A stretch of DNA of 46,300 nt from Bdellovibrionales bacterium RIFOXYD12_FULL_39_22 (GCA_001770205.1 MEQL01000035.1:124001-170300), one strand, 5' to 3'; shown: positions 2 to 14,184, counted from the stretch's first letter. Numbers and translations are program-made. Notes: generated by a model from the sequence alone, not told the origin.

Positions 2-313
2 AATCTAATAATTCTAAATGCCGCCATATTGGGGATCTCGGTGGATGATACAATTCATTTGATGTACCACTATACTCAGCGCAAAAATTATTCGTCCTAC
101 GATAATCTAAAAATTACTTTAAGTGAGATATCAACGGCGCTAGTTAAAACAACTCTTTTTTTTATTCTAACCTTTCCCATTTTTTTTCTTACCTCCTTTA
201 ATTTTTTTCATGAGATGGCCCTTTTGATAATTGTTGCTTTTACAGTGGCCTTGCTTTGTGACTTGTTTGTTTTGCCAGCAACTTTACTGATTAAAGACGG
301 GGAACTGAAATAG
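2..313 (+). CDS. MMPL/RND family transporter, C-terminal part (5'-truncated by window edge)
   Basis: Frame is open from position 2 (NLIILNAAILGISVDDTIHLMYHY). The GISVDDTIH motif and the terminal TM helices ending CDLFVLPATL are typical of MMPL/RND C-termini. Confidence 0.85.
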   Translation, partial: NLIILNAAILGISVDDTIHLMYHYTQRKNYSSYDNLKITLSEISTALVKTTLFFILTFPIFFLTSFNFFHEMALLIIVAFTVALLCDLFVLPATLLIKDGELK

Positions 314-454: not shown

Positions 455-2002
455 ATGAAGATTTTTATTGTAACACTTTCTTTTTTAGCGATTAGCGCCT
501 TAGGAGTTTATACGCTGACAAGTAATAAGTATAAATTTTCCGAAGAGGGGAAGCGAGCGATTGCTTATAGCGATAAATCATCAGAGTTGGAAGTAGATGG
601 AGATCGATCGGTAATAGAGGAGATAAATGAAACAATTTTTGCAATTAGCACAGAAAAAGACATTGATAATCTAATTAAAAAAGTAGACGCAGAGTTAGCA
701 GAGCGGCCGATGGATGCCACCTTGCTTGTGTATAGCGCAATAATTTCTCCGCTAAAAGTTTTTAAGAGTTTTGGTTGGAGGGTTCTAGAGCTAGATGCGC
801 CTTTTGATTTTTGGGAAATAATGAGTGTTGCAGAACTTAGAGAGGTGGGCAAAAATTTGGATCGATGGGCCCCTCACTTTCGTCCACTATTTTACTATTT
901 GCTTCAGGGGGCGGATCATAAAAATATTTCTCAGGATCGGGCCTTCAGTGATTTTCAGAGATATTATTTGGAGACAATATATCCTGAACTGAATAAGAGT
1001 ATTCAAAAACTAAGCAAAGTGGCGGAAGGAATTGAAGATTATAACGTAGAAATTTTTGAAATGAACACTGCCCTATTTTTGGGAACTTCAAAAAATGAAA
1101 TGATAAATGAGGATTATAAGCATCTTAAATTTACCATAGAGCATGTTAATTTTTTACTTTCCAACTTTCATCGAATACAGGCCGTTTTGACTTATATTGC
1201 TTCTTATGATTTTGATGCGCTTAAAGCTTTTAGGGCATCGGTTGATGTCTACAATATGGGAAAAACTTTATTGGAAGGGACCTTTACGAATAACGATTAT
1301 AAGTTTTTACCACATGACTTTAGATATTATGAGGCCCTCCATGATGAGCGAATGAAGCATTATTTAAAAATTACCCACAAAAAAGATTTGAGCAAACTTT
1401 TTACTTTGAAAAATAATATGATTGTCAATTTGTCTCAAGAAAGAGTGCATACACTGGCCGCTTCGTTAGAGCATTTTCGACTTGCTAATAAATATAGAAT
1501 CAAGGCGGTGGATGGACTTAATATACAAAAGGATTATCCATCACCGCAAATTAAAAATCTTATCAATGCTGAAAACTATTTATCGCAAATTTGGGTTAAT
1601 AAGAAGACTTTGAAGAAAAGGGGAGAGGTGCTAAATTCAAATGGTGCCTATTCCTTTAAAGACGCTTTTTATACCTTTAGTTTTAATATAAATTTTTCTT
1701 CGTTGTTTGACCCAAAAAATCCTGCAATTTTTGATTTAAAAAAACTTATGCCAACTAAGGCCAATTTCGCTGGCCGAAATCGGACACCACTGGAGAGATT
1801 AAAAAATCAGATGGGAAAGACTGATAGTGAAAAATGGTTGATGAGTTTTGAAGATGATTCGCCAACTTCGTTGCCAGATTATAGATTCGGGCAATTATTT
1901 CCAAATGCGTCCTCGATGCAAGATTTGAAAGCGATTACTGGATCACTGGGACGAGATAATGCCCTGCCCTTTCTTAATGTTTGGTTGAGCTTATTCTTTT
2001 AG
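455..2002 (+). CDS. Hypothetical secreted/membrane-anchored protein (515 aa)
   Basis: Long ORF with GGAGG RBS upstream and an N-terminal hydrophobic signal/anchor (MKIFIVTLSFLAISALGVY). No recognisable catalytic motif. Confidence 0.75.
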   Translation: MKIFIVTLSFLAISALGVYTLTSNKYKFSEEGKRAIAYSDKSSELEVDGDRSVIEEINETIFAISTEKDIDNLIKKVDAELAERPMDATLLVYSAIISPLKVFKSFGWRVLELDAPFDFWEIMSVAELREVGKNLDRWAPHFRPLFYYLLQGADHKNISQDRAFSDFQRYYLETIYPELNKSIQKLSKVAEGIEDYNVEIFEMNTALFLGTSKNEMINEDYKHLKFTIEHVNFLLSNFHRIQAVLTYIASYDFDALKAFRASVDVYNMGKTLLEGTFTNNDYKFLPHDFRYYEALHDERMKHYLKITHKKDLSKLFTLKNNMIVNLSQERVHTLAASLEHFRLANKYRIKAVDGLNIQKDYPSPQIKNLINAENYLSQIWVNKKTLKKRGEVLNSNGAYSFKDAFYTFSFNINFSSLFDPKNPAIFDLKKLMPTKANFAGRNRTPLERLKNQMGKTDSEKWLMSFEDDSPTSLPDYRFGQLFPNASSMQDLKAITGSLGRDNALPFLNVWLSLFF

Positions 2003-2060: not shown

Positions 2061-2984
2061 ATGGAGTTTGGGGCTTTTTTAATTGCACTGTTTGTTACCA
2101 TGGGGGTGAAAATCTCCGTAATTTTTACCACTCTTTTCCTTTTGTGGAAGATGATTAAGTTGCGAGTGGTTCAGAAAGAGTTGCTGGCCGAATCGGTGGC
2201 CAATCAGGAAAGCTATAAAATTTTTAATCTGCTTTTTTGGTCCTTGATTTTGTTTTTTTTCTCTGAGGTGTTTTGTGGTATTGAAACTTATATTCTGATG
2301 CGCTCTGATTATTTAGGAAGAATTACTCATTCCCTCTCCTCCAGCACTGGCCTGGCCGTTTTTTTACTGGGCCTTTTTATGCTGTTGGATAAGCATTTAA
2401 TCCGCTTTGCTAAACCTAAGTGTATGTTTATTCCTGTATGTAGGGAGTGCACACTTTTTTCAGAGAATAATTGCAAGTTTTCTAAAATGGTGATTATTTT
2501 TTTTCTTTTTGTATTATTGGCCTGCCTTCCCCCGTTTTTTGCTAGTACCGACTATATGGGAGCAGAGGTGGAAAAATTTACTCTTCCTTTTGCTGGCCTG
2601 AATAATTGGTATGATGGCACTTTGTTACCGCTGCTTCAACGTTTGAATCCTAATTATATTCCGGTGCGTAATGCTATCTATTTAGATCGAGCTCCTCAGA
2701 TTTTAGATTATCGCCTTACTCCATTAGTTGCTTTAATTTTTATTTTCACTGGACTTATTTTGTATTTGGCAAAAGATCAAAGACGTCGTACTGCGGGTAT
2801 CAATTTGGCCATATTAGGTATTGGACTGATTGGTTTTACTTATTATGAGTTGGTGTTAAATCGTGCAACCAATGATCTTTTTGTTGGTGCCGTCGGCCAT
2901 GAAATCGGCGAATTGTTGTATCTTTTATTTTTTTATCAACTACTGAAAATATTTTATATGAGGCCACCCCATGTCAAAATTTAG
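2061..2984 (+). CDS. Polytopic membrane protein of unknown function with a Cys4 loop
   Basis: AGGAG RBS; about 6-8 hydrophobic segments; loop CMFIPVCRECTLFSENNC; overlaps the start of the next gene. Confidence 0.75.
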   Translation: MEFGAFLIALFVTMGVKISVIFTTLFLLWKMIKLRVVQKELLAESVANQESYKIFNLLFWSLILFFFSEVFCGIETYILMRSDYLGRITHSLSSSTGLAVFLLGLFMLLDKHLIRFAKPKCMFIPVCRECTLFSENNCKFSKMVIIFFLFVLLACLPPFFASTDYMGAEVEKFTLPFAGLNNWYDGTLLPLLQRLNPNYIPVRNAIYLDRAPQILDYRLTPLVALIFIFTGLILYLAKDQRRRTAGINLAILGIGLIGFTYYELVLNRATNDLFVGAVGHEIGELLYLLFFYQLLKIFYMRPPHVKI

Positions 2985-4386
2985 GGAATCTTCTTTTTTT
3001 TCAATAAGTGAATCTATATGCCCAGTTTGTAGAAGAATTTTGAGTGGGAAGATTTTACTTAAAGAGGGAAAGGTTTTTCTTGCTAAGCGATGTCCTGAAC
3101 ATGGGCACTTTGAAGCTCTTTTGTCATCCGATGATAAATATTGGGTTAATTCTCTTTCTTATACCAAGCCCGGCCAGCTGCCGCTTAAATTTTCTAAGGC
3201 CTTTGATAAAGGATGTCCGGAAGATTGTGGACTTTGTGAAGAACATGAGCAGCACACCTGCTCCCCAATTATTGAGATCAATAACAAATGTGATCTGGAA
3301 TGTCCGGTCTGTATTGTTTGGAATGAGAATAATTATGAGATGAGCTTTGAGGATTTTAAAAAAATTGTAGATGGATTAATTGAAAAAGAGGGAAGTTTAG
3401 AATTGGTATTATTAAGTGGAGGGGAGCCGACTCTTCACTCGCAGTTTGAAAAATTTGCTCAATATATTACCTCTAAAAAAGAGATTAAACGAGTTCTAAT
3501 TTCTTCCCATGGATTACGTATTGCTAAAGACGAGGAGTTTGCCAAGAGATTTGCCCAGCTAGGCCTATATCTATCTTTGCAATTTGATACGCTTCGAGGG
3601 GATGTTTACGAAAAATTGCGCGGTAGAGATCTTTTGGCCGATAAGATGAAGTGCTTGGAGCGATGTGAAAAATATAAAATACCAACGGTAATAGTGCCTA
3701 CTATTGCGCGGGGGTATAATGAAGATGAGGTGGGGGCGTTGGCCAATTTTGCTTTTAAGCATGATTTTATTACTTCAGTAACTTTTCAACCAATGGCCTA
3801 TACGGGAAAAGGAGGAAGCTCTTTTTCTGTGGATGAATCGCTGCCTATAACTCAGGCCGACATGCATCAGCTTTTGGCCACACAAACGGATTGGCTAAAA
3901 AAAGAGGATTTTTTGCCAATTCCTTGCTCTCATCCTCAATGTTATTCTGCCACCTATTTGTTAAAGGTAGCGGAGGCTGAATTTATTCCACTTACTAGAT
4001 TTGGTGAAATCAACTCCTATCTAGATGCAATGGCCAATCGGGCCTTACTAGATTCGGGTGGACGTACAGCAGAAATGTTGCAAGATGCCGTCTATAGCTT
4101 GTGGTCGGCACAATCCATTACTGTTGATTCAAAAAAAGTAAATGACTCTTTAAAAAATATTATTAAGCAAAATCAGGCCAGCTGTTGTGCTCTTGATTTG
4201 CAAAAATATAACGAGGGTAAATTTAAGGCCATTTTTATCCATTCGTTTATGGATGAAAATAACTTTGAGGTTTCTCGGATTAGAAAGTGTTGTACTCATT
4301 ATGCATTACCAGATGGAAGGTTAATGCCTGGATGTTCCTATAACAACATTCATCGACATCGAGATGAGCGTTTAAAGAGAAAATGA
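2971..4386 (+). CDS. Radical SAM protein, tetraether lipid synthase (Tes/GDGT-MAS, MJ0619)-like
   Basis: N-terminal CPVC..KRCPEHG metal site, CPEDCGLCEEH auxiliary cluster, CDLECPVC radical SAM motif, SGGEPT, PCSHPQC, and C-terminal FMD..KCCTHY.LPDGR.MPGCSYN. This is the motif order of the MJ0619/Tes family. Confidence 0.85.
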   Translation: MSKFRESSFFSISESICPVCRRILSGKILLKEGKVFLAKRCPEHGHFEALLSSDDKYWVNSLSYTKPGQLPLKFSKAFDKGCPEDCGLCEEHEQHTCSPIIEINNKCDLECPVCIVWNENNYEMSFEDFKKIVDGLIEKEGSLELVLLSGGEPTLHSQFEKFAQYITSKKEIKRVLISSHGLRIAKDEEFAKRFAQLGLYLSLQFDTLRGDVYEKLRGRDLLADKMKCLERCEKYKIPTVIVPTIARGYNEDEVGALANFAFKHDFITSVTFQPMAYTGKGGSSFSVDESLPITQADMHQLLATQTDWLKKEDFLPIPCSHPQCYSATYLLKVAEAEFIPLTRFGEINSYLDAMANRALLDSGGRTAEMLQDAVYSLWSAQSITVDSKKVNDSLKNIIKQNQASCCALDLQKYNEGKFKAIFIHSFMDENNFEVSRIRKCCTHYALPDGRLMPGCSYNNIHRHRDERLKRK

Positions 4387-6668
4387 AAATTACAAGAATT
4401 TTACTTATTCACTCTTCCCACTATAATGATCAAGGCCAGGTGGTGCGATCGAGTTCTTTGTTTGATAGATTGACAATAACCAATGTTGCCCCGTTAGCAC
4501 TTCCCTTGTTGGCCGCTTATGTCCCGGCCGCTGTTGATGTTGAAATTGTTGAAGATTGTTTTGAAGAGATTGATGTGAATGATCCGGCGGAAGTTGTTGG
4601 TATTTCTGCGCAAGTGATGCAAATTGATCGGGCGCGAGATTTAGCAAAGATGTTTAAAAGTCGAGGGAAAATTGTTGTCATGGGGGGATATCTCCCCACA
4701 ATGCATCCAGAATTAGTGCAAGATTTTGTGGATAGTTTATGTATCGGCGATGGAGAACAGGCCTGGCCGCAGATGTTAGAAGACATAGAAAAGGGAGTGT
4801 TGCAAAAAAGATATTATGGATCTTCTGAAGAATCTCTGCATGGAATAAAAGTCCCACGCTATGATCTGATAAAAAAAGATCGCTTTGTCTTATATCCTAT
4901 TTTTGCAACTAGAGGGTGTCCTTTTACCTGTGATTATTGCTCGATCATTCAATTTCACAAAAAAAATTACCGCCTGCGCCCAGTAGAAGAGGTGATTCGC
5001 GATATTAAAGCTACAAAAACAAGATGGATCTACTTTTGTGATGATGGCCTGATGGAAAATGTAAAATATAGCAAGGAACTGTTTCGGGCCATGAAAGATT
5101 TGCATGTGGTGTGGGGAACGCAGACTACTATTAATTGTGCTAACGATCCAGAGTTGTTAGCACTTGCTTATCAGGCCGGTTGTCGCTTTGTGGCCCTAGG
5201 AATGGAGTCTTTATCTCAAAAAAATCTGCAGGCGATGAATAAGACAATTAATAGGATCGATCAATTTAGCAAGCAGATTGAGACTATTCATAAGTTTAAA
5301 ATTGCCGCTCATGTTTTGATTATTTTTGGATTAGATGAGGATACTCCGCAAACTTATGAAGAGACCTTTAACTACTTAATGAAGCTCAATGTTCTAGTTG
5401 CCGAATTTTTTCTTTGCACCCCGTATCCGGCAACTCCTTTTGGCAAAAGAATGTTAGCGAATAATCGTATGCTAACAACTGATTTGGCAAAATATCGAGA
5501 AGGATATCTAACTTTTAAACATCCCACGATGAGTGAAGATGAAATTATAACTAACTACTGGCACACCTTACGCCGCTTTTATTCACTCTTTAACATTGCT
5601 ATACGTTTTTTTAAAGGTAGCTACAAGAACAGATTTTATCATTTGGCAAATGCACTTTCTTATTGGGTTAAGATAAAGCGTAATATTATTCCGGTCTATT
5701 TTGGACAAGGAAATCGGCCGGTTGCTCCAAAATCCTTTGACCCGGTGGGTATTTGGACTTCAGTGTTAGGCAATTTTGGTGAGTTTACGGAAATATTTTT
5801 TGCCAAGGATAATCAGACTGTATGGATGTCGCATGAAAAATATGACGGAGTTGGTGCTTTTGCTAAATTACTTAGAGAGAGTGGACTACGAGTGGGGGTT
5901 CTTTTTGATATATCGGCCAAGCTTCAGCGGCCTTTAACTATTTTTCAAAAAAGTTGGGCCATTTTTTTGTATTTAAAAGATAGTTTTCCCAGGAAAACAT
6001 TTTGGAAAAAAGAACAATTAGAGGTTGTTGGCAAAAAACTTTCGCCGGCCATGCTTGCATTTTCTTTAGAGGAAACTTTGCAGATTAAACAGCAGGCCAA
6101 GCAAAAGGGAGTCTCGTTAAATAGTTGGCTTCTTTTTCATTTAGATCAAATAGTCTCTCAGGAGTTATTGGCCAAGAATCAAGAAAAGTGGTGGCTAATT
6201 CCTTGCAATATGCGTCCCTATGTTGTCAAAGTACCAGATACTGGAAATCATGCTTCCTATGTAGTGGCCAAAATAGCGGCCAAGGATGGGCCAAAGGAAA
6301 TTCATCAGAAAGTAAAAAAAATGCTTTCTAATAATTATCATTGGGGCGCCTGGTATGTTTTTCAGATTTCACGCTGGATAAAAATAATTGGAATGAAAAT
6401 GATTTTTTCTAATTATTATAGAAACAATCATTCATGGGTTGGAACACTTAGTAATCTGGGAGCATGGCCACCAGATGGTAATCAAGCTACAAAAGAACTA
6501 TGGTATTTTTGTCCTCCGGCCACGCGCGCCCATCCGGTGGCGGCCGGAAGTTTAATATGGAAGGAGCAATTAACTTTAACGTTACAAATTCATCCACGTA
6601 TTGGATTGGAAGAAGAATTGGCCTCTAAAATTTTAAAACTTTGGCAAAATGCGCTTAAGGAAAATTGA
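4383..6668 (+). CDS. Cobalamin-binding radical SAM enzyme fused to a C-terminal CoA/ACP-dependent acyltransferase (condensation-like, HxxxDG) domain
   Basis: B12-binding domain (PLALPLLAA, VVGIS, VVMGG, IGDGE) and TRGCPFTCDYC. After about residue 450: SHEKYDG, GVSLN, IPCNMR, GNH and SNLG motifs of the PapA5/WS-DGAT/condensation fold. ATGA overlap with the upstream gene. Confidence 0.8.
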   Translation: MKITRILLIHSSHYNDQGQVVRSSSLFDRLTITNVAPLALPLLAAYVPAAVDVEIVEDCFEEIDVNDPAEVVGISAQVMQIDRARDLAKMFKSRGKIVVMGGYLPTMHPELVQDFVDSLCIGDGEQAWPQMLEDIEKGVLQKRYYGSSEESLHGIKVPRYDLIKKDRFVLYPIFATRGCPFTCDYCSIIQFHKKNYRLRPVEEVIRDIKATKTRWIYFCDDGLMENVKYSKELFRAMKDLHVVWGTQTTINCANDPELLALAYQAGCRFVALGMESLSQKNLQAMNKTINRIDQFSKQIETIHKFKIAAHVLIIFGLDEDTPQTYEETFNYLMKLNVLVAEFFLCTPYPATPFGKRMLANNRMLTTDLAKYREGYLTFKHPTMSEDEIITNYWHTLRRFYSLFNIAIRFFKGSYKNRFYHLANALSYWVKIKRNIIPVYFGQGNRPVAPKSFDPVGIWTSVLGNFGEFTEIFFAKDNQTVWMSHEKYDGVGAFAKLLRESGLRVGVLFDISAKLQRPLTIFQKSWAIFLYLKDSFPRKTFWKKEQLEVVGKKLSPAMLAFSLEETLQIKQQAKQKGVSLNSWLLFHLDQIVSQELLAKNQEKWWLIPCNMRPYVVKVPDTGNHASYVVAKIAAKDGPKEIHQKVKKMLSNNYHWGAWYVFQISRWIKIIGMKMIFSNYYRNNHSWVGTLSNLGAWPPDGNQATKELWYFCPPATRAHPVAAGSLIWKEQLTLTLQIHPRIGLEEELASKILKLWQNALKEN

Positions 6669-7408
6669 TGTATAAAAAGTTATTGCTAAAAGATAAGAAA
6701 GTGGTGGTTACGGGTGGTTCAAAAGGGCTAGGACGAGCAGTTGTTCTTGCTTGTGCCAAAGAAGGAGCACAAGTGGCCTTCACGTATGCCCATGATGATG
6801 CTGCTGCCACCAAAACAGAACAATTGGTTGGAAGTGTCGGTTTTAAATATAAAATAAGTGCAACCTCGCTTGTGGAAAATATCAAGATGGCCCAAGAGTT
6901 AAAAGAACGCTGGGGAGGAATTGATATTCTTATCAATAATGCGGGCAGAAGTGAATTTTTGCCAATGGCACTTATGGAGGAGTCGGATTGGCGGACAACT
7001 CTCGATTTAAATCTTACGGGTGCTTTCATTACAGTCAAGGCCTTTCTTCCTCTGATGGTTGCGCAAAAAAAAGGACATGTGATGAATGTTGGATCATTGG
7101 CCGGGGTTCGGATTTTGGCCGCCCCCATCGATTATTCGGCCAGCAAGGCCGGCCTAAAAGGTTTTAGTGAAGCGTTGGCCAAGGAGGTTGGCCGCTATAA
7201 TATTCAAGTTAACTGCTTTGCCCCTGGGATTTTGGATGGAGGGGTCGCGATGGGAATTCCAGAAAATAAAATTAGAGACTATATCGATCAGTTATCAATC
7301 AAGCGTATTGCTACTTTTGATGAGGCGGCCAGGGCCTTGGCCTTTTTTGTTTCAGATAAAAACTCTTACATGTCGGGAGCTACACTAATTTTTGATGGTG
7401 GATTGTAA
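6668..7408 (+). CDS. fabG: 3-oxoacyl-ACP reductase (SDR), catalytically intact
   Basis: TGGSKGLG, NNAG, GS and YSASK catalytic motif, APG, DGGL end. The ATG overlaps the upstream TGA. Confidence 0.88.
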   Translation: MYKKLLLKDKKVVVTGGSKGLGRAVVLACAKEGAQVAFTYAHDDAAATKTEQLVGSVGFKYKISATSLVENIKMAQELKERWGGIDILINNAGRSEFLPMALMEESDWRTTLDLNLTGAFITVKAFLPLMVAQKKGHVMNVGSLAGVRILAAPIDYSASKAGLKGFSEALAKEVGRYNIQVNCFAPGILDGGVAMGIPENKIRDYIDQLSIKRIATFDEAARALAFFVSDKNSYMSGATLIFDGGL

Positions 7409-7411
7409 AAA

Positions 7412-8116
7412 ATGCAAGAGATTAAGGTGCAACAAAAACATTTTTTGGTTTATGGTGGATCTGGCCATGTTGGCCATGCACTTGTTTGTGCCCTTTTGCA
7501 AGAAGGCCACAAAGTGACGGCCACCTATTGTAATAACAAAATAACAATGGCCCATCAAAATTTAGAGGTAATTTTTTTTGATATGAGTTCCTCTTTGCCA
7601 ATTGTTATCCCCGGGCCGTTGGATGGAATTGCCTTTTGTATCGGCCTAGATAAAAAAGCGCAGGCCATAAAAAAAATAGAGGAGAGTATGGCCCAAAACG
7701 TGGGAGAGTCCGCTCATCTTTTTTCACGTCTGGCCGTTGGGGGAATTCAAGCAGGACTTCCTTCTTTGCGTCAGTCATCCAACCCGAATATAGTCTTTAT
7801 TGGTTCGCTGGTAGGAAGCAAGGCCTTTATTTCACCTTTAGAATTTGCCGCCAGTCAAGGTGCTATGAATGGATTGATAGAAGTACTAAGCAAAGATTTG
7901 GGACGAGATAAGATTAAAATTAACTCAATTGCACCTGGTGTTTTAGAGGGGGGAGCTAGCGAGAATTTGTCCAAGCAGCTTAAATATGATTACCTAAAAC
8001 ATTGCTCTTTGCGAAGATATGGAAAGGCCATAGAAGTGGCAAATATGGCAGTCTGGTTTTTAGAAGAAAATAGTTACATAACTGGTAAAACAATTGTGCT
8101 TGATGGAGGTTTATAG
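7412..8116 (+). CDS. FabG-like SDR with degenerate active site (probable non-catalytic partner)
   Basis: GGSGHVG Rossmann motif, INSIAPG and DGGL are retained, but YxxxK is replaced by FAASQ and NNAG is lost. Confidence 0.8.
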   Translation: MQEIKVQQKHFLVYGGSGHVGHALVCALLQEGHKVTATYCNNKITMAHQNLEVIFFDMSSSLPIVIPGPLDGIAFCIGLDKKAQAIKKIEESMAQNVGESAHLFSRLAVGGIQAGLPSLRQSSNPNIVFIGSLVGSKAFISPLEFAASQGAMNGLIEVLSKDLGRDKIKINSIAPGVLEGGASENLSKQLKYDYLKHCSLRRYGKAIEVANMAVWFLEENSYITGKTIVLDGGL

Positions 8117-8592
8117 TGCGATACTATCTTTTAGACAAAATAACGCAAATTAAAGTTGATGAAAGTGCCAGTGGGATTAAATGTATTTCTTTCACGGATG
8201 AAGTTTTGCATGATCATTTCCCAGACAATCCTATTATGCCTGGTGCTTTGATTGTAGAAGGAGTGGCCCAATTGGCCGGTTTTTTGCTGGAAGTAAGTTA
8301 CAATAAAAGTGATGATAATATTGTTAGAGCGGTGCTTTGTCAGATAGATAAAATGAAATTTTATAAAATGAGTGTGCCGGGGGATCAGTTGATTTATAAT
8401 GCCAAGATCCTTTCAAAAATGTCAGATGCTGCGCAAGTGGCAGTGGAGGTTTTTTGCAAAGAAGAATTACATGCGCAAGGTAAAATAACTTTTCAACTTT
8501 TGCCAATTGACTCGGAAAATGTCAATAATCAGCGTCGATCGCTTTATAAAATTTGGACCAAAGGAGTAGAAAATTGTCCAACGCTAAGATAA
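8116..8592 (+). CDS. fabZ: 3-hydroxyacyl-ACP dehydratase (FabZ/FabA hotdog)
   Basis: YYLLDKI and DHFPDNPIMPGALIVEGVAQ with catalytic His and Glu, VPGDQL. The GTG start overlaps the upstream TAG. Confidence 0.88.
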   Translation: MRYYLLDKITQIKVDESASGIKCISFTDEVLHDHFPDNPIMPGALIVEGVAQLAGFLLEVSYNKSDDNIVRAVLCQIDKMKFYKMSVPGDQLIYNAKILSKMSDAAQVAVEVFCKEELHAQGKITFQLLPIDSENVNNQRRSLYKIWTKGVENCPTLR

Positions 8593-9437
8593 ACATTGTC
8601 GGCTTTGCCAGTTTCACTCAAGGTGATCCCTTTGCTACGGCCCGCCAGCTTTTGAAAGATAAGAAGCTTTTTAAGTTTTTATCTAAACAAGATGCGCTCG
8701 GATTATCTGCTGCCGGCCAGGCCTGGAGTCAGGCGCAAATTGAGCGGATAGATGCTAATTACAGTGAACGCACGGGGATATATCTTTGTGTGGGGATTTT
8801 GCCCTTCGAAGATGGCCCGTTGCATACGCTCTATGAAAACTCTAAAGAAGGTGATCACTTTTCAATGAAAAATTTTTCAAATAAGGCCTTTCCTGCGATG
8901 AATCCACTTCTAACATTTAAGTGTTTGCCCAATATGCCTCTTTTTCATATCTCCAATAATTTTCAAATTACGGGCCGCTATTTTATGACTTATCCTGGAA
9001 TTCCAGAGTGGTTTGAAGTTTTAAAACGGGCCATTGATGATTTGAATGAGGGCGTTGTTGAGTATGCGATTGTGGGGGCCATTGCTGATCAGCAAAATTT
9101 TTTAGTCTCGCATCATTTACAAAGAATAAATCATGCGCTGGCGGCCAGGGCAATTGATGCTTCTTCGGTGCTAATTTTGTCGGCCGGCCAAAAACTTACC
9201 TCCTTTGGAAAGATAGAAGAGGTTTCTGTTTCCTATCGGCCTTTTGATCCTTTGGGCCAAAAAGAGTTGTTAATACAAAGCGCGGACGATTATCAGACAG
9301 ATAGTTTTACGGGAGTGGCACAGGCCTCACTGTTTTTCACGGAAGCACTGGCACGCACGGAATTAAAAATGCCACTTCGCTATTGCTGGCGTGGCGATGA
9401 GTGGAATTATTGCGCACTTACGGTGGGGCCGCCATGA
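8574..9437 (+). CDS. Beta-ketoacyl synthase-like protein lacking catalytic Cys (chain-length-factor-like)
   Basis: KS N-domain features (KFLSKQDALGLSAA, ERTGIYL, NPLLTFKCLPNM, ITG) but no ACA motif and a short C-terminus. A TTG start at 8574 follows AAGGAG (the ORF track starts at 8553). Confidence 0.75.
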   Translation: MSNAKINIVGFASFTQGDPFATARQLLKDKKLFKFLSKQDALGLSAAGQAWSQAQIERIDANYSERTGIYLCVGILPFEDGPLHTLYENSKEGDHFSMKNFSNKAFPAMNPLLTFKCLPNMPLFHISNNFQITGRYFMTYPGIPEWFEVLKRAIDDLNEGVVEYAIVGAIADQQNFLVSHHLQRINHALAARAIDASSVLILSAGQKLTSFGKIEEVSVSYRPFDPLGQKELLIQSADDYQTDSFTGVAQASLFFTEALARTELKMPLRYCWRGDEWNYCALTVGPP

Positions 9438-10663
9438 ATAAAAAAGTAGTTGTTACCGGAATGGGAGTAATCTCTCCGCTCGGAAATAATTTAGTTGATT
9501 TTGAAAAAGCGCTTTTTGCTGGTAAATCTGGCGTGGGGCCGATTACTCGCTTTGACCCGACGGGCCTTCCGACTACCATTGCATCAGAGGTTAAAAATAT
9601 TGCTAGTGATTTTAGGGATGTGAAAATAACCTTTGCTCTTTTGGCCGCTCAACAAGCGATTTTTGCTGCTTTTGGCCATGAGATGCTTCCTGCGAAGACT
9701 TCATCTTTTTTATCTTTGGGCATTGGCCTGGAACTTTTTTCAATGGAAGATTTAGTAGCGCTTAAATCCAAAGGCCGCGAAAATATTTCAGAAGTAGAAG
9801 ACTTAACTTTTTTAAATACACCCTCAAATATTTGTGGCCATCTTATTTCTAAAAAATATCAACTAACTCATGCTCCTGCTTTTCACATCTCCGCCTGTGC
9901 GGCCGGTACTGATGCCATTGGCCACGGCTTTTTAAAAATTGCCAGAGGAGAGGTTTTGATGGCCTTGGCCGGAGGAACGGATTCCATGATAAATCCGATG
10001 GGGGTTGGTGGGTTTTGTCGGATAGGAGCGATGACGACAAAAAATAGCACGCCTCATTTGGCATCTCGTCCCTTTGATAAATCAAGAGATGGTTTTGTTT
10101 TAGGTGAGGGAGCAGGTTTTTTAGTGTTAGAGGAAGAAGAGTTTGCACGAAAAAGAGGGGCAAAAATAGTAGGCCGAATTTTAGGATATGGAAACAGTTT
10201 GGATGCTTACAGTGTAAGTGATCCTCATCCACAGGGAGAAGGGGCGATTAAGTCGATGCATCGTGCTTTGCAGTCGGCCCATCTTTGCCCTGCAGATATT
10301 TCCGCCATTAGTGTTCATGGAACAGGAACCGCCAAAAATGATCCGGCAGAGGCGGCCGCGATTAGAACACTTTTTAAAGAAGACTATAAACGTATTCCGG
10401 CCTTTGCGACCAAGTCTATGACTGGGCATCTTATTTCTGCGGCCGGAGCTGTGGAGAGCATTGCCACGTTTTTATCTTTGCAAAGACAGCAGCTGCATCC
10501 CACCATAAATCTTCAAGAGGTTGCTGATGGCTGTGAACTCAACCATGTTATCGGGAAGAGTAAAAATTGTTCTCTAAAATACATCCTTAAAAACTCATTC
10601 GGTTTTGGTGGCCAGAATGCCTCACTGGTTTTGGCCCTCGACGAAGGGCCGCGTTTTTGTTAA
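9434..10663 (+). CDS. fabF: Beta-ketoacyl-ACP synthase II
   Basis: VVVTGMGVISPLG, SACAAG (Cys), VHGTGT and TGHL (His-His), SRPFD, GEGAG, NSFGFGGQNA. The ATG at 9434 overlaps the upstream TGA. Confidence 0.92.
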   Translation: MNKKVVVTGMGVISPLGNNLVDFEKALFAGKSGVGPITRFDPTGLPTTIASEVKNIASDFRDVKITFALLAAQQAIFAAFGHEMLPAKTSSFLSLGIGLELFSMEDLVALKSKGRENISEVEDLTFLNTPSNICGHLISKKYQLTHAPAFHISACAAGTDAIGHGFLKIARGEVLMALAGGTDSMINPMGVGGFCRIGAMTTKNSTPHLASRPFDKSRDGFVLGEGAGFLVLEEEEFARKRGAKIVGRILGYGNSLDAYSVSDPHPQGEGAIKSMHRALQSAHLCPADISAISVHGTGTAKNDPAEAAAIRTLFKEDYKRIPAFATKSMTGHLISAAGAVESIATFLSLQRQQLHPTINLQEVADGCELNHVIGKSKNCSLKYILKNSFGFGGQNASLVLALDEGPRFC

Positions 10664-10688
10664 ACTGTTGCTTGTAAAAGGAGTTCTT

Positions 10689-11075
10689 ATGCCCAAGATG
10701 GAGCGCGAGAAAATAGTTGAAGAGATTAAAAATATTATAGCAGATGGATTGAGTATTGATTCATCCACACTATCGCTTGGGAGTTTTTTGGTAACTGATT
10801 TGCGGGCCGATTCCTTAGATATTATGGATTTTATGTTTCAAATCCAAGAAAAATTTAATATTAACCTACAAAAAGAGGATTTTCATTTTCTGAAAAAATT
10901 AAATATGCCACAGGAACAGGCGGTGATTGATGGTTTTTTGTCAGAAGCTGCCATTTCTGCTTTAAGACATTGGCTTCCACAATTACCAGCTTCTGTTAAA
11001 CTACGGCCTGTGGATCTTGGCCAGTATCTATCTTTGGAGTCTTTAGTCATTATTGTTGAAGAAAATTTAAGCTGA
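10689..11075 (+). CDS. Acyl carrier protein, extended form (128 aa)
   Basis: AAGGAG RBS then ATG at 10689; DLRADSLDIMD phosphopantetheine Ser motif; about 40 aa insertion before the last helix. Confidence 0.88.
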   Translation: MPKMEREKIVEEIKNIIADGLSIDSSTLSLGSFLVTDLRADSLDIMDFMFQIQEKFNINLQKEDFHFLKKLNMPQEQAVIDGFLSEAAISALRHWLPQLPASVKLRPVDLGQYLSLESLVIIVEENLS

Positions 11076-11078
11076 ATT
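11033..11078 (+). repeat. Direct repeat copy 1 (3' end of the ACP gene)
   Basis: TTTGGAGTCTTTAGTCATTATTGTTGAAGAAAATTTAAGCTGAATT recurs at 12403-12449. Confidence 0.9.
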
Positions 11079-11104
11079 ATATGCCTTTGAGGATCAAAGC
11101 TTAC

Positions 11105-11160
11105 TATATGCCTTCTGTAAAATCATAAAAGCCTATTTACATTTTTACAGAAGGCATATA
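11105..11160. promoter_or_regulatory. Perfect 18 bp inverted repeat overlapping a sigma70-like promoter; operator candidate for the ATPase gene
   Basis: TATATGCCTTCTGTAAAA (11105-11122) and TTTTACAGAAGGCATATA (11143-11160) with a 20 nt spacer. TTTACA at 11136 and TATAAT at 11157 lie just upstream of ATG 11174. Confidence 0.65.
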
Positions 11161-11173
11161 ATCTGTATTTACT

Positions 11174-12367
11174 ATGCCGCATATCAGAAAACGTTTTCTT
11201 GAAGGTTTATTAAGGAAAACGCTCCGCTACTCTCCAATTGTTGGAATTTTTGGCCATCGCCAAGTTGGTAAAACGACGTTGGCAAATTTATTAAGCAAGC
11301 GTTATATTTCTTTAGATTCGGCATCATCACTGGCGCTCGCTTCCCAAGATGCCGCTAGTTTTTTAGAGAAAAACAAGGCAAGTCCTCTGGTTATCGACGA
11401 ATGCCAACTTGCTCCGGAACTTTTTCCTGCGTTAAAAGAACATGTGCGACAAAATCAAAGTCCAGGACAATTCTTGCTCACAGGATCGGTGCGATTTAGT
11501 TCTCGCCGAGCTATTAGAGAATCTTTGACTGGTAGAATTGTGGCCTGGGAACTGTTACCAATGGATATGAGCGAAACGTATCAAAGCACATTGCCGATAG
11601 CTCTTATTAAAATGCTAACGGCAAAAAGCGTCGATATTGATTTGCCTACCGCAAATTATTTTACTGAAAAAAACTACTTACGTTATCTCCAAAACGGTGG
11701 CCTTCCTGGTATTTTTAGTATTAGGGATTCTGCGATAAAGCGCCAGCGCTATGAGACTCAGATAAATACTATTTTAGAGCGGGACTTACAACTGATATTT
11801 CCAACAACATTAAGCTATCGAACACTCCGCCACCTTCTGGCAACTCTGGCCAGCAAAGTTGGAGAACCTCTAGAGTGGTCATCGTTGAGTCGCGCAGTGC
11901 GTATCTCTATTCCAACGCTTTATAAGCTTATTGCGGCATTTGAGGCGATGTTTCTCATTCGACTCATACCTACCGTGGGATCACAAAAAAAAGCAGTACT
12001 TTTTTTTGAAGATGTAGGAGAGGCCAATTACTTATCAAGTTTAGCAAAAAATGAACTGACAGCACTAACGCTTTTTTTATTTGCTAATCTAAGAACGCAA
12101 TTCATGTATCGTCCGGAAGCATCAGTAGAAATATTTCAATATCGTAATCGCGGAGGAGGTTTTGTACCGCTTTGCTTTAATACTTCGAATCATTACCTTG
12201 GAATATTACCATCTTTGGAGGAAAATCCAAGTGATTCAATTTTGGGAAGTGCTAGGAGCTTTTTAAGAAAATATAAGCAGGCCAAAATTCTTATTGTTCA
12301 TAGAGGAGATAAGGACAAAATTTTACAAGATAATATTCGTATAGTAAGTGCAGGGCAGTTGATTTAA
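11174..12367 (+). CDS. AAA+ ATPase (AAA_14 + DUF4143 type)
   Basis: Walker A GHRQVGKT, Walker B VIDECQ, LTGS, ESLTGR, GGLP, ERDL and a wHTH-like segment. Confidence 0.88.
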   Translation: MPHIRKRFLEGLLRKTLRYSPIVGIFGHRQVGKTTLANLLSKRYISLDSASSLALASQDAASFLEKNKASPLVIDECQLAPELFPALKEHVRQNQSPGQFLLTGSVRFSSRRAIRESLTGRIVAWELLPMDMSETYQSTLPIALIKMLTAKSVDIDLPTANYFTEKNYLRYLQNGGLPGIFSIRDSAIKRQRYETQINTILERDLQLIFPTTLSYRTLRHLLATLASKVGEPLEWSSLSRAVRISIPTLYKLIAAFEAMFLIRLIPTVGSQKKAVLFFEDVGEANYLSSLAKNELTALTLFLFANLRTQFMYRPEASVEIFQYRNRGGGFVPLCFNTSNHYLGILPSLEENPSDSILGSARSFLRKYKQAKILIVHRGDKDKILQDNIRIVSAGQLI

Positions 12368-12402
12368 AAAAAGAATCGCCGTGGATTAGTCAATTATTTA
12401 TT

Positions 12403-12449
12403 TTTGGAGTCTTTAGTCATTATTGTTGAAAAAAAATTTAAGCTGAATT
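12403..12449 (+). repeat. Direct repeat copy 2 (decayed duplicate of the ACP 3' end)
   Basis: Same as 11033-11078 except a G>A change and one extra A in the A-run. Confidence 0.9.
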
Positions 12450-12481
12450 TATAAGTCTTACTTTTTAGTCAGGATGTTAAA

Positions 12482-12775
12482 ATGCATAGTCTATTTGGCG
12501 AAATGATCGGTACTTTTCTTATTGTATTTTTCGGCTGTGGAAGTGTAGCGGTTTCCACGATATTTAATACAGGTATGAGTCTTTCAGATGTGGCCATGGT
12601 TTGGGGAGGTGCTGTTGCATTGGCCATTTATTCTACAAGATATCTTTCTTGTGCTCATCTAAATCCAGCAATATCTATTGCGATGGTAGTGGCCGGTAGA
12701 ATGAAATTAAAAAATATCGCTCCGTATATTCTTTTTCAATGTTTTGGTGCTTTTTTTGGTGCACTACTTTGTTAA
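12482..12775 (+). pseudogene. Truncated aquaporin/MIP (GlpF/AqpZ family), N-terminal half only
   Basis: GEMIGTF, FGCGSV and AHLNPAISI (first NPA). It stops at 97 aa, and no second NPA half follows before the convergent gene. Confidence 0.8.
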
Positions 12776-12810
12776 CCCGGCCTGCAGGCGCAGGGCGGGT
12801 TCAGTTTTTT
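12774..12810 (+). terminator. GC-rich hairpin followed by a T-tract; probable intrinsic terminator
   Basis: AACCCGGCCTGC-AGGC-GCAGGGCGGGTT (11/12 bp paired), then CAGTTTTTT; lies between convergent genes. Confidence 0.5.
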
Positions 12811-12875
12811 CTTGCAGATAAAATTTCTGTGAACAAGGCATCACCAACATTAGTTGGCCCATTATGGGAGGTACG

Positions 12876-13514
12876 CTACTGCCAAAACAGAGATGCGGAG
12901 TATTGCATGAATGGCTCCTTTTCATTTGCATTACTTGCACCAGCAATTGGTTTTGCGTAGCCAATTTCAGCAATCAATCCCCAGTCATCTCCCCATTTGA
13001 AACCAGCAGATCCTCCGGCCAGAAAAATTGTTGAAGATTCATCTCCTAAGTCCCCTCCCGTGGCATTCATCAGTTTACTACTTAAAGTTGGAGTAAAAAG
13101 AATTGCAAAATTCTCCCTCAAGTTATAATCCATGAAGATTGGAATTTTAAGCTCTATGAATGTGGATTTTCTCTCTCCACTTGAAACTGAAAAATATCCA
13201 ACCCCAAGCCCAGTGGATAGGTTTAGATCACCGTTCATAAGCTGATATTTTGCATCAAAGGCCGGAGATAATCCGTTGGTAACTCGAACACCTGCATCTA
13301 AGTTTGGAAAAATACCTCTACGATACATAATTTCTAGAGTTGGAAAAGAAAACTTATCACTTTCTCCTTCTACGTGGTACTTTGAGCTAAATTGGCCTAC
13401 GCCAATCGCAAATGAACTTTTGTCCACATCCAGGACTTTTGCTGTTTGCATCTGAGTTACAGTTGAACAAGAAACAAAAAACAGGACAATAAAAGACAAT
13501 AAAATGCTTTGCAT
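12876..13514 (-). CDS. Lipoprotein with outer-membrane beta-barrel-like sequence
   Basis: Lipobox FVSC; alternating beta-strand pattern; aromatic C-terminus (YSASLFWQ); GGAGG RBS. Confidence 0.7.
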   Translation of the reverse strand: MQSILLSFIVLFFVSCSTVTQMQTAKVLDVDKSSFAIGVGQFSSKYHVEGESDKFSFPTLEIMYRRGIFPNLDAGVRVTNGLSPAFDAKYQLMNGDLNLSTGLGVGYFSVSSGERKSTFIELKIPIFMDYNLRENFAILFTPTLSSKLMNATGGDLGDESSTIFLAGGSAGFKWGDDWGLIAEIGYAKPIAGASNANEKEPFMQYSASLFWQ

Positions 13515-13553
13515 AGTTCCTCCAAAAAAATAAGTGTTAAAAAAAATATTTAA

Positions 13554-14069: not shown

Positions 14070-14184
14070 TGTGTTTCTCCATTGTTTTACTGTTGTTGTG
14101 TGCGCAGGTGCAGTCTAACTCAACAATTAACAAAAGTGAAGAAGAGGATTGGGATTGTGTTCTGTGAGATTCTGTAGACCCCAG

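Follow-up and report, generated by a model that had tools for sequence, protein, structure and literature searches.

A Tes-like radical SAM enzyme linked to type II fatty-acid-synthase genes in a Bdellovibrionales genome: a candidate operon for a specialised envelope lipid

Analysis of a 46,300-nt stretch of the genome of Bdellovibrionales bacterium RIFOXYD12_FULL_39_22 (hereafter, the window) identified a genuine, densely packed operon of nine co-oriented genes at positions 2061–11075, in which a radical SAM enzyme resembling archaeal Tes/GDGT-MAS and a B12-radical SAM/acyltransferase fusion are encoded together with a type II fatty acid synthase (FAS) set. We put the chances at about even that the operon was horizontally acquired and is dedicated to a specialised cell-envelope lipid. 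The interpretation given in a preliminary description of this DNA is partly supported. All nine genes that it listed were found, each on the plus strand, with junctions in order of −14, −4, −4, +3, −1, −40, −37 and +25 nt; its figure of 25 nt for the largest gap is correct if the acyl carrier protein (ACP) gene begins at ATG 10689, preceded by AAGGAG at a distance of 7 nt. Two genes further upstream, for an MMPL exporter and a 515-aa protein, are kept in the clusters of relatives and are conserved cluster members, so the operon is larger than first stated. The resulting eleven ORFs are all intact, with overlapping or nearly overlapping junctions. Downstream of the cluster lie a truncated aquaporin gene and a gene for an AAA_14/DUF4143 ATPase.

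The Tes/MJ0619-like identity proposed for the second of the nine genes (2971–4386, 471 aa; Pfam Radical_SAM and Zn_ribbon_HMPTM) holds, as the protein gave a full-length match to MJ0619 (PDB 7TOL) covering residues 14–466 at E 6.8e-70. Its scores were under the curated cutoffs of the NCBIfam models for Tes (NF045702; 292.2 bits, cutoff 450) and for the TrsS radical SAM (seleno)protein (NF045646; 287.4 bits, cutoff 490). The four-domain architecture of GDGT-MAS and all of its metal-site motifs are present, comprising a rubredoxin-like site (C17, C20, C41 and H44), an N-terminal [4Fe-4S] site (C82, C86, C89 and H92), the radical SAM motif CxxxCxxC (C107, C111 and C114) and a C-terminal part with C319, C324, C440, C441, C455 and M427, every one of these residues being invariant in 21 sequences. 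The ligand scheme given in a published review assigns three Cys and one His to each of the first two sites, and from the C-terminal set we infer the probable ligands of a [4Fe-4S] cluster. GDGT-MAS catalyses Csp3–Csp3 coupling and also binds Escherichia coli phospholipids (published review; Lloyd 2022). The archaeal enzyme has isoprenoid ether-lipid genes as its context, whereas the window enzyme, encoded by a single-copy gene, is linked to FAS and ACP genes and belongs to a bacterial clade split from two archaeal sequences by a branch with full support. Published work still describes bacterial Tes homologues as untested, in keeping with the preliminary description, which calls them mostly uncharacterised.

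Linkage between the Tes-like enzyme and FAS genes proved to be clade-specific. In a tree of 84 Tes-like sequences, all those with FAS neighbours fell within a single clade of 29 (SH-aLRT 99), and same-strand genes for FabG, ketosynthase (KS), FabZ or ACP were present within 8 kb at 20 of 24 loci of this clade, compared with 0 of 55 loci outside it. The gene set is kept together in other genomes. The four clade loci at which a FAS neighbour was not found (L101, L110, L121 and L123) each lie on contigs that are short on at least one side. Opposite-strand fabG and fabF were seen at two of the 55 outside loci, 4.4–5.9 kb away. Members of the FAS-linked clade come from Bdellovibrionota, Myxococcota, Acidobacteriota, Actinomycetota and Pseudomonadota, and within the window's own phylum few genomes carry the cluster (3/401; 0/100 in the same family). 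A cultured Sorangium strain carries a homologous cluster, with a homologue at 46 % identity. Orthologues of the B12-radical SAM enzyme (43–60 % identity) adjoin the Tes-like gene at ten loci (L013, L094, L095, L102–L105, L108, L178 and L192). Moreover, 17 pairs of database matches to the two enzymes have longest contigs of equal size and so probably lie on the same contigs, whilst five homologues of the acyltransferase domain are on contigs equal in size to those of Tes-like or B12 matches. Genes for a GDSL protein, a FabI-like reductase, an MMPL transporter and a 480-aa protein occur together in relatives' loci, the in-cluster reductase scoring 311 bits against a FabI model in L096 and 258–266 bits against adh_short_C2 in L192 and L194. 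Locus L194 carries all four along with the cluster's membrane protein gene, and no Tes-like gene was found within the ~5.5 kb of the locus that extends beyond GDSL, so the export module can evidently stand apart.

The third gene (4383–6668) encodes a 761-aa fusion of a B12-radical SAM enzyme and a condensation-fold acyltransferase. Residues 1 to about 445 matched B12-binding (PF02310; 35.9 bits, cutoff 32.1) and Radical_SAM (PF04055; 57.2 bits) domains, and the CxxxCxxC motif (C179, C183 and C186) is invariant in 18 sequences; a B12-binding domain with a CxxxCxxC core places the protein among class B radical SAM enzymes. Scores fell below the cutoffs for the ladderane-type lipid enzyme (TIGR04072; 77.4 bits, cutoff 360), HpnJ (89.5, cutoff 577.6), BchE (84.6, cutoff 481) and TIGR04013 (91.2, cutoff 251). 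The C-terminal domain (residues ~447–761, 315 aa) had no match in Pfam, PF00668, PF07247 and PF16911 included, with the threshold relaxed to E≤10, and AATase, PapA_C or Condensation appeared only as minority labels among its Atlas neighbours. Its AF2 model (pLDDT 93.0, pTM 0.92), in contrast, gave 238 PDB matches in Foldseek at E≤0.001, led by NRPS Cy, C and E domains, PapA5 and TRI3 (prob 1.00, TMq 0.43–0.65), with a MEL acyltransferase also matched at prob 1.00. The two-lobed fold is shared with PapA5 (1q9j, E 7.4e-8, prob 1.00) and NRPS condensation domains, as is the HxxxD(G) motif; across 30 sequences H38 and D42 never vary and G43 hardly does, the window copy reading HEKYDG. The earlier HxxxDG acyltransferase call is thus sound. 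Differences from those domains are its compact size (~315 versus 400–450 aa), the lack of a matching Pfam model and the B12-radical SAM fusion. PapA5 works together with MmpL7. Relatives of the domain carry fused MMPL, LPG_synthase_TM, GDSL, SDR or HlyD domains, all of which point to lipid or envelope contexts. The fusion with a radical SAM enzyme appears to be confined to this organism: the fused form is recorded on 11 contigs, and the other 119 homologues listed each cover at most 60 % of the 761-aa query, the matches being to the radical SAM half. In L192, the B12-radical SAM gene is followed by a separate 322-aa gene for the C-terminal domain.

The last six of the nine genes make up the FAS set. 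FabG, FabZ and FabF were each identified as had been proposed. The FabG-type 3-oxoacyl-ACP reductase (6665–7408; adh_short E 4.5e-48) has an intact YxxxK motif (DYSASK) and scored 189.5 bits against subfamily model NF009466 (cutoff 222), and the FabZ-type 3-hydroxyacyl-ACP dehydratase (8116–8592) has a FabA-like domain (E 4.6e-18) and scored 96.8 bits against TIGR01750 (cutoff 155). Between them, a second SDR (7412–8116; adh_short_C2 E 1.7e-20) reads EFAASQ against DYSASK in its paralogue, with Phe for the catalytic Tyr and Gln for the Lys. Its designation as a dead FabG is accurate for this genome, but this is no conserved design feature: three of four orthologues (L096, L097 and L133) keep both residues and the fourth (L099) has Tyr and Gln; loss of both is lineage-specific. 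The FabF-like KS (9401–10663; TIGR03150, 388 bits, cutoff 493.75) probably starts at ATG 9434, with alternative start codons available, and its C166, H306 and H343 are invariant. The 294-aa product of the preceding gene (8553–9437) had no Pfam match at E≤0.01, ketoacyl-synt appearing at E 0.073, but its L096 orthologue matched that family at 5e-4 and alignment to the KS profile (hhalign) gave 85.5 % and E 5.7e-6. FHISNN in this protein aligns with FHISAC in the KS, placing N136 (invariant, 4/4) opposite Cys166, so its description as a Cys-less KS was correct. A Cys-His-His subunit with a homologous partner lacking the Cys resembles the pattern of a KS and its chain length factor. A heterodimer of the two was predicted with a score of 0.93 (best of three controls, 0.00), reaching a mark that is also attained by 116 of 157 complexes of known structure and by 2 of 215 mismatched pairs; runs agreed in at least 81 % of contacts with a partner pLDDT of at least 84, although complexes of a KS with its chain length factor have been solved and the result may reflect likeness to them. 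A housekeeping fabF is present on another contig (C37), so the cluster synthase is an extra one. The ACP (10689–11075, 128 aa; PP-binding E 3.6e-5) has an invariant Ser43 within DSL and was rightly called long, with a C-terminal extension of ~50 aa that aligns across nine cluster ACPs. The GDSL and enoyl reductase genes present in relatives are absent from the window cluster.

Only the C-terminal end of the exporter gene lies in the window (2–313, plus strand). An MMPL exporter does end upstream of the nine genes, as the preliminary description noted: the reading frame that stops at 313 is the tail of a 717-aa MMPL/HAE3-type RND protein whose gene starts before the window, at G000:C35:122160; it scored 44 bits against Pfam MMPL (cutoff 20.5) and 114 bits against TIGR00921 HAE3 (cutoff 351.9). 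MMPL orthologues (33–35 % identity) adjoin the cluster's membrane protein gene in L192 and L194, where homologues (29–31 %) of the 515-aa protein (455–2002, plus strand) also stand beside MMPL. The latter has a hydrophobic N-terminus, no Pfam or NCBIfam family, and only unnamed clusters, mostly from Bdellovibrionota, as Atlas neighbours; it is a conserved companion of the exporter and probably secreted. An indolepyruvate:ferredoxin oxidoreductase pair sits 17 nt upstream of the exporter. The first of the nine genes (2061–2984) encodes a polytopic membrane protein of 307 aa with a conserved C-x5-C-x2-C-x7-C loop and an HExGE motif. The label Cys-rich is wrong for this protein, which has six Cys (2.0 %), five of them invariant in nine aligned homologues; the invariant residues are C72, C121, C127, C130, C138, H90, H280, E281 and E284. 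No Pfam family was found, its AF2 model is all-helical (pLDDT 82) with no specific match in fold searches, and a search of 5.8 billion proteins returned only eight homologues, with occurrences in L097, L099, L192 and L194.

In the pathway we favour, the type II synthase (FabF-like KS with its short Asn-for-Cys partner, FabG and FabZ) would assemble an acyl chain carried by the cluster's long ACP. The window's copy of the cluster, unlike those of relatives, has no enoyl reductase, and the special chain of the preliminary description, if saturated, would hence rely on a housekeeping enzyme. With GDSL missing too and Tyr and Lys lost from the second SDR, the pathway may have changed or partly decayed in this organism. 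The Tes-like enzyme would abstract hydrogen from an unactivated alkyl carbon of an ACP- or lipid-bound substrate and form a C–C bond, which would join two chains at their tails or close a link inside one. The B12-radical SAM domain might then add a methyl group or perform a second radical step, after which the fused condensation-fold domain would release the completed acyl chain from its thioester link to the ACP and pass it to an acceptor with a hydroxyl or an amine. Placing the product in the envelope would fall to the MMPL/HAE3 transporter together with the 515-aa protein and the Cys4 membrane protein. We see it as an evenly balanced proposition that this product is a specialised envelope lipid tailored via radical C–C bond formation.

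Literature and database searches found no characterised cluster that corresponds to this one. The reaction proposed for the Tes-like enzyme is of the kind catalysed by Mss of Thermotoga and Thermoanaerobacter, a radical SAM enzyme that joins two fatty-acyl tails into diabolic acids (Sahonero-Canavesi 2022). That study describes Mss as only remotely related to Tes, and the sections of it consulted here mention no dedicated FAS for Mss, unlike the window cluster. Cultured Pyrinomonas methylaliphatogenes produces iso-diabolic acid although its entry in the Tes-homologue column of Table S21 of Sahonero-Canavesi 2022 is empty, and Tes homologues were present in only 3 of 14 iso-diabolic acid-producing Acidobacteria; among cultured Acidobacteria, making this lipid and having a Tes homologue do not go together, which counts against the pathway we favour. 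The anammox ladderane cluster (amxACP, amxFabZ, an amxFabF heterodimer and a B12-radical SAM enzyme), as described partly in a 2026 preprint, likewise has an extra type II FAS with special ACP and FabZ, a KS paired with a catalytically altered homologue that acts like a chain length factor, and several radical SAM enzymes, B12 type included. In the window cluster, by comparison, the KS partner is shortened to 294 aa, there is no phytoene-desaturase-like or SAM methyltransferase gene, and the B12-radical SAM enzyme (77 bits against 360) falls outside the ladderane family. The Kuenenia Tes-like homologue was placed in the clade without FAS neighbours. The membrane-spanning, macrocyclic and ladderane-like lipids named in the preliminary description are all hypothetical products.

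Several other explanations were weighed. It is possible, though we consider it unlikely, that both radical enzymes, Tes-like and B12, work on glycerolipids already assembled in the membrane, with the synthase only supplying a special fatty acid (in chain length or branching) that becomes a substrate after incorporation into phospholipid. The substrates of GDGT-MAS itself are intact diether phospholipids, and the purified enzyme retains two phosphatidic acid molecules from E. coli in its pockets; an LPG_synthase_TM membrane protein is encoded immediately upstream of the Tes-like gene in G381, and a GDSL acylhydrolase recurs among the clusters. Fusion of the condensation domain to the B12-radical SAM enzyme and the family-specific ACP extension, kept in 9/9 aligned cluster ACPs, both point indirectly to carrier-bound chemistry instead.

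Somewhat less probable still is a polyene or polyunsaturated product, akin to aryl-polyene pigments or the unsaturated hydrocarbons proposed for FAS-plus-radical SAM clusters in Kuenenia and Desulfotalea. A KS with a short partner, a ketoreductase and a dehydratase without an enoyl reductase would yield an unsaturated chain for the radical enzymes to modify and for the acyltransferase and RND pump to anchor and export. The combination of a KS, a truncated partner and an RND exporter resembles aryl-polyene clusters; no polyene cluster is known to require a Tes-like enzyme. The genome yielded no FabI-type gene (94.6 bits at best, cutoff 337), but close relatives (L096, L192 and L194) have a FabI-like reductase within their clusters, and with the flexirubin FlxB model (cutoff 340) the window FabG reached 152 bits. 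The neighbouring oxidoreductase pair could supply an arylacetyl-CoA starter, yet in the family relative G024 its orthologues (57–58 % identity) precede an ADP-forming acyl-CoA synthetase, which suits a role in amino-acid catabolism better than one in this cluster. Rattray (2009) tied the Desulfotalea cluster to polyunsaturated hydrocarbons.

A diffusible or secreted type II PKS-like metabolite, such as a cyclised fatty-acid-derived molecule, in place of a structural lipid is very unlikely in our estimation. Accessory genes vary among loci (an aminotransferase in L133, a nitroreductase-family gene in L097 and L133, and also a rhodanese fusion, an FAD oxidoreductase and an MDR reductase), and the aminotransferase and nitroreductase-family genes hint at a range of natural-product-like compounds more than at a single membrane lipid. 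The patchy distribution within the phylum and weak, below-cutoff similarity to cispentacin AmcE (38.5 bits) and AmcF (217.8 bits) also fit such a metabolite. Against this, the core is FabF-, FabG- and FabZ-like and not aromatic-PKS-like, the acyltransferase family's fusion partners are envelope-lipid domains, and family-model searches of the window cluster found no cyclase, thioesterase or adenylating starter enzyme. Equally improbable is that the window copy is rearranged and decayed to the point of no longer making the ancestral product: enoyl reductase, GDSL and the second-SDR Tyr/Lys are gone, the genes stand in another order than in L192, two of them are fused and the truncated aquaporin and ATPase genes lie downstream, but all eleven tightly spaced ORFs are intact, catalytic motifs are kept in the Tes-like enzyme, B12-radical SAM enzyme, acyltransferase, FabG, KS and ACP, and the fused ORF recurs across its 11 contigs.

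Returning to the envelope-lipid pathway, we tentatively suggest, as a broader reading that is itself unlikely to be right, that bacteria of the FAS-linked Tes-like clade have another way, unconnected with Mss, of making membrane-spanning or macrocyclic lipids. This route would weld two chains, or both ends of one, by Csp3–Csp3 coupling on chains built on a dedicated long ACP, with C-methylation by the partner B12-radical SAM enzyme and off-loading by the condensation-fold domain. The gene set, uncharacterised and present in several phyla, offers a compact test of what bacterial Tes relatives make. If the suggestion is true, lipids of the diabolic-acid or branched-tetraether-precursor type would be made in Bdellovibrionota, Myxococcota and Acidobacteriota.

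Nine co-oriented genes, overlapping or nearly touching, were present at 2061-11075 as the preliminary description had them, with ORF listing and domain scans giving junctions of -14, -4, -4, +3, -1, -40, -37 and +25 nt. The last value, equal to the largest gap originally claimed, was obtained with the ACP start at ATG 10689, which has AAGGAG 7 nt upstream. The exporter placed upstream proved to be the tail, ending at 313, of a 717-aa MMPL/HAE3-type RND transporter whose start lies outside the window. As this exporter and a 515-aa protein both have counterparts in the clusters of two relatives (loci L192 and L194), they are cluster members. Base composition did not mark the cluster as an island (0.402 inside it, 0.390 over the remaining window). 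Neither the promoter scan, with 34 promoter-like sites where 33.4 would be expected, nor the terminator scan, whose sites fell inside genes, was informative.

An indolepyruvate:ferredoxin oxidoreductase-like alpha/beta pair (IorAB) lies 17 nt upstream of the exporter in the source genome, G000 (G000:C35:119901-122142; 11901-14142 of the fetched region L175), with scores of 454.7 and 203.7 bits, both below cutoff. It was considered as part of the operon, being co-oriented, and left out: in the family relative G024, orthologs with 57-58% identity are flanked by lpx genes and by an ADP-forming acyl-CoA synthetase, a differing context from which we judged the pair to be probably outside the cluster, and no Ior matches were found in the related cluster loci. 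Reduced ferredoxin or an acyl-CoA starter could come from IorAB, but the G024 orthologs are in a catabolic context. Directly after the ACP, across a 98-nt gap, is an AAA_14/DUF4143 ATPase gene (11174-12367) that showed no relation to the cluster in other loci. A MIP/aquaporin gene at 12482-12960 looks truncated or frameshifted, coding for no more than the initial ~97 residues (Pfam positions 10-105 of 222); the next ORF, which overlaps it, had no PDB match. Also downstream of the cluster are an HTH and DUF4423 protein on the minus strand (14185-14988; E 2.1e-38) and, likewise on the opposite strand, a leucine-rich-repeat protein.

The protein encoded at 2971-4386 contains Radical_SAM and MJ0619-type zinc ribbon domains and was correctly likened to Tes/MJ0619, aligning to the archaeal tetraether synthase GDGT-MAS (PDB 7TOL) over residues 14-466 with E 6.8e-70. 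Its scores with the NCBIfam Tes and TrsS models, 292 bits (cutoff 450) and 287 bits (cutoff 490) respectively, are both below cutoff, and by these thresholds it belongs to neither family. Its gene is single-copy in the genome. A 2026 review of lipid radical SAM enzymes describes four metal sites for GDGT-MAS, and the matching Cys/His motifs were invariant in an alignment of 21 relatives. The same review gives bioinformatic detection only for bacterial Tes homologs and names Mss, a membrane-spanning lipid synthase, as the characterised bacterial tail-coupling enzyme. Proposals that bacterial Tes homologs make membrane-spanning lipids, from which the brGDGT palaeoclimate proxies derive, date from 2022, with a role in brGDGT synthesis put forward by Zeng 2022; Lloyd 2022 reports them in organisms without known biphytanyl chains, and a 2025 Black Sea study treats their function as still unconfirmed.

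Loci were fetched with alignments of the B12-radical SAM (B12-rSAM) and Tes-like proteins and scanned with all window proteins; the Tes-like sample, the 80 best of >454 relatives, is biased towards the query. When 84 Tes-like rows were placed in a maximum-likelihood tree, with two archaeal rows as the root, all rows linked to fatty-acid synthase (FAS) genes fell within one clade of 29 rows (SH-aLRT 99). A Sorangium strain, a cultured carrier of the clade, has a homolog with 46% identity. Among these 80 best of >454 relatives, same-strand FAS genes occurred within 8 kb in 20 of the 24 clade loci and in none of the 55 loci outside the clade, two of which had fabG and fabF on the opposite strand, 4.4-5.9 kb away. 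The clade loci lacking FAS neighbours (L101, L110, L121 and L123) are each on a contig that is short on at least one side.

Across the fetched loci from this sample of 80, the gene set was kept together in other genomes in two arrangements. Type A has the order Tes-like, FabG, second SDR, FabZ, short KS-like, ketosynthase (KS) and long ACP, sometimes with the membrane protein, and is carried by a Bacteriovoracaceae MAG (L096), two Myxococcota MAGs (L097 and L098), a member of the Polyangiaceae (L099) and one of the Acidimicrobiaceae (L133). Type B runs FabG, Tes-like, B12-rSAM, KS-like gene, KS, FabG, ACP, FabZ, and was found in Acidobacteriota (eight Pyrinomonadaceae loci, Thermoanaerobaculia, Acanthopleuribacteraceae and two loci assigned only to the phylum), in Myxococcota and in a Parabeggiatoa MAG. 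The window and L096 were sister to the type-B group (SH-aLRT 100). L096 also has a FabI (311 bits to the FabI model) after the Tes-like gene and a GDSL gene after the ACP. Seventeen B12-rSAM/Tes-like pairs of database matches, and five homologs of the acyltransferase domain, agree in the length of their longest contig and so appear to lie on shared contigs. When metagenomes were scanned with the membrane protein, four relatives were recovered besides L190, which is identical to the window. L192 holds on one strand Tes-like (64%), B12-rSAM (60%), free acyltransferase-domain (35%), GDSL and MMPL (33%) genes, a 480-aa homolog of the 515-aa ORF (29%) and a FabI-like reductase, with a divergent membrane protein. 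L194 carries the membrane protein, a FabI-like gene, the 480-aa protein, MMPL and GDSL, with no Tes-like gene in the ~5.5 kb held beyond GDSL. Two or three tandem Tes-like paralogs stand beside FAS genes in some loci (L097 6583-11398, L156 8578-11392, L121 and L123), pointing to several radical steps in such variants. A nitroreductase-family (BluB-like) gene precedes the ACP in two type-A clusters (L097 16051-16689; L133 7495-8151 and 9262-11190), of which the one in L133 further has a class-III aminotransferase and a rhodanese-membrane fusion.

Closer to the source genome the cluster was rare: no orthologs of the fusion or Tes-like proteins turned up in 40 relatives, and the genomes with the Tes-like gene at E<=1e-60 numbered 3/401 in the phylum, G000 included, and 0/100 in the same family. 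This patchy occurrence across five phyla suggests horizontal transfer. The eight Pyrinomonadaceae loci led us to consider a link to the iso-diabolic acid of that family. This was weakened by the cultured iso-diabolic acid maker Pyrinomonas methylaliphatogenes, for which Sahonero-Canavesi 2022 (Table S21) lists no Tes homolog; together with the finding, in that paper, of Tes homologs in only 3/14 iso-diabolic-acid-producing Acidobacteria, it disfavours a simple link between a Tes-like gene and this lipid.

The first FabG keeps YxxxK. The second SDR, previously called a dead FabG, does have Phe and Gln at the Tyr and Lys positions here, but this is lineage-specific: Tyr and Lys are both retained by the L096, L097 and L133 orthologs, and that of L099 has Tyr and Gln. 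FabZ and the FabF-like KS look active, and C166, H306 and H343 of the latter are invariant. The proposed Cys-less KS, a 294-aa ORF, gave a marginal Pfam KS match (E 0.073; 5e-4 for the L096 ortholog), chance matches only in a sequence search of the PDB, and 85.5% probability (E 5.7e-6) in profile comparison with the cluster KSs. Its FHISNN aligns to FHISAC of the KS, placing at the active Cys an Asn that is invariant in 4/4 sequences. A predicted heterodimer of the two scored 0.93 against 0.00 for the best of three controls, a likeness rather than proof given that KS/chain length factor complexes have been solved; the mark for such scores was reached by 116/157 solved complexes and 2/215 mismatched pairs. 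Contacts agreed to 81% or more, and the partner had a pLDDT of 84 or higher. The ACP is long, as described; its serine is invariant, and its ~50-aa C-terminal extension can be aligned over nine cluster ACPs. A housekeeping fabF-fabG locus stands separately on contig C37. The nearest described design is the ladderane cluster, with its extra FAS-II, special ACP and FabZ, KS/altered-KS heterodimer and radical SAM enzymes; the B12-rSAM of the window falls outside the family that defines that cluster.

Both halves of the 761-aa fusion at 4383-6668, described as a B12 radical SAM enzyme joined to an HxxxDG acyltransferase, were borne out. The N-terminal ~445 residues have a B12-binding domain above the Pfam cutoff and an invariant CxxxCxxC. 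They fit no curated lipid B12-rSAM family, with HpnJ, BchE, ladderane-type TIGR04072 and others far below cutoff, and the nearest solved structures (AprD4, CysS and TokK) are all distant. The C-terminal 315 residues (C-domain) matched no Pfam model even at E<=10, and searching the PDB by sequence gave chance matches only. Their AlphaFold model (pLDDT 93.0, pTM 0.92) matched NRPS condensation, cyclisation and epimerisation domains, PapA5, TRI3 and a mannosylerythritol-lipid acyltransferase in Foldseek with probability 1.00, and Atlas neighbours agreed with this condensation-fold assignment. In an alignment of 30 members H38 and D42 (C-domain numbering) were invariant and G43 nearly so, these being the residues of the HxxxDG motif. 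The kin of the C-domain are free-standing proteins of ~320 aa (494 representatives at E<=0.001). Among the best 120 homologs of the whole fusion, coverage exceeded 60% only in the window's own record, the other 119 covering 50-60% of the query, namely the radical-SAM half; related loci were not matched with the single fusion protein as query, and alignments of each half were needed. The 761-aa form is on record on 11 contigs and is therefore probably not a single assembly error. In L192 the two halves are separate genes with a 4-nt overlap.

The membrane protein (2061-2984) was overstated as Cys-rich, having only six Cys (2.0%), five of which are invariant along with H90, H280, E281 and E284. 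Eight homologs were found among 5.8 billion proteins. Modelling gave an all-helical bundle, of poor quality at the Cys loop, that had no Foldseek match at E<=0.001; in a wider structural comparison the highest Z was 10.7, the matches being generic seven-helix bundles and designed proteins at a level that is background for helical proteins. Adiponectin receptors were not accepted as its family, their matches being weak (E 0.19-0.5, TM ~0.25). In the Atlas the 515-aa protein matched only unnamed clusters.

Further FAS-like or radical SAM gene sets were observed in G000. A second accessory FAS-like cluster (G000:C12:128845-138162; 4845-14162 of region L188) comprises a 610-aa B12-radical SAM, a FabZ-like protein, a 360-aa ORF without Pfam family, KS, FabG, a 129-aa long ACP, a hexapeptide-repeat protein and an NAD-binding protein. 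At G000:C57:59781-69971 (5781-15971 of L179), four B12-radical SAM paralogs in tandem, with 31-33% identity to the fusion N-domain, come after a GH3-like adenylating enzyme, a 724-aa MMPL-like protein encoded on the opposite strand and a 386-aa radical SAM gene, and before DDE and IS66 transposases. Comparable tandem arrays are found in G024 (four copies) and in another compared genome, G023 (two copies). A third, small set on the minus strand (G000:C41:72727-76540; 6727-10540 of L189) contains a 260-aa ORF, an 84-aa ACP, KS and two SDRs, adjoined by an AMP-binding enzyme.

The cluster is a conserved lipid-type pathway around a Tes-like enzyme and a private synthase, uncharacterised so far; full-text searches of the literature gave no paper on a Tes-like enzyme linked to a dedicated FAS, though subscription journals or supplements could hold one. 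To this extent the lipid pathway first proposed stands, while its product is inferred. We consider the chances about evenly balanced that this is an envelope lipid: its acyl chain would be built on the long ACP, radical C-C bond formation and a B12-dependent step would then modify it, and after off-loading by the condensation-fold domain the RND system would export it. That the radical enzymes act instead on finished phospholipids seems unlikely; in its favour, E. coli phospholipids were found in the archaeal enzyme (Lloyd 2022). The window's copy lacks the enoyl reductase and GDSL genes that relatives carry. A polyene or unsaturated product, to which a missing enoyl reductase would point, we think distinctly unlikely. 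A secreted small molecule is very improbable; members of the C-domain family elsewhere are fused to MMPL, LPG_synthase_TM, GDSL, SDR or HlyD domains, all envelope-lipid contexts. Partial decay of the window's copy, which its missing reductase and altered SDR would favour, is strongly doubted.

One well-supported clade of Tes homologs is consistently tied to its own KS pair, reductases, dehydratase and distinctive ACP. Often a B12-radical SAM enzyme is present too, as are an acyltransferase of the condensation fold and an RND exporter. This linkage limits the probable substrate to a chain of the cluster's own making. The operon is compact (~9-11 kb), its host is a low-GC bacterium, and it could be expressed whole. 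Its product, whatever its nature, would reveal what a widespread but uncharacterised family of gene clusters does, and whether Tes-type C-C coupling operates on fatty-acyl chains.
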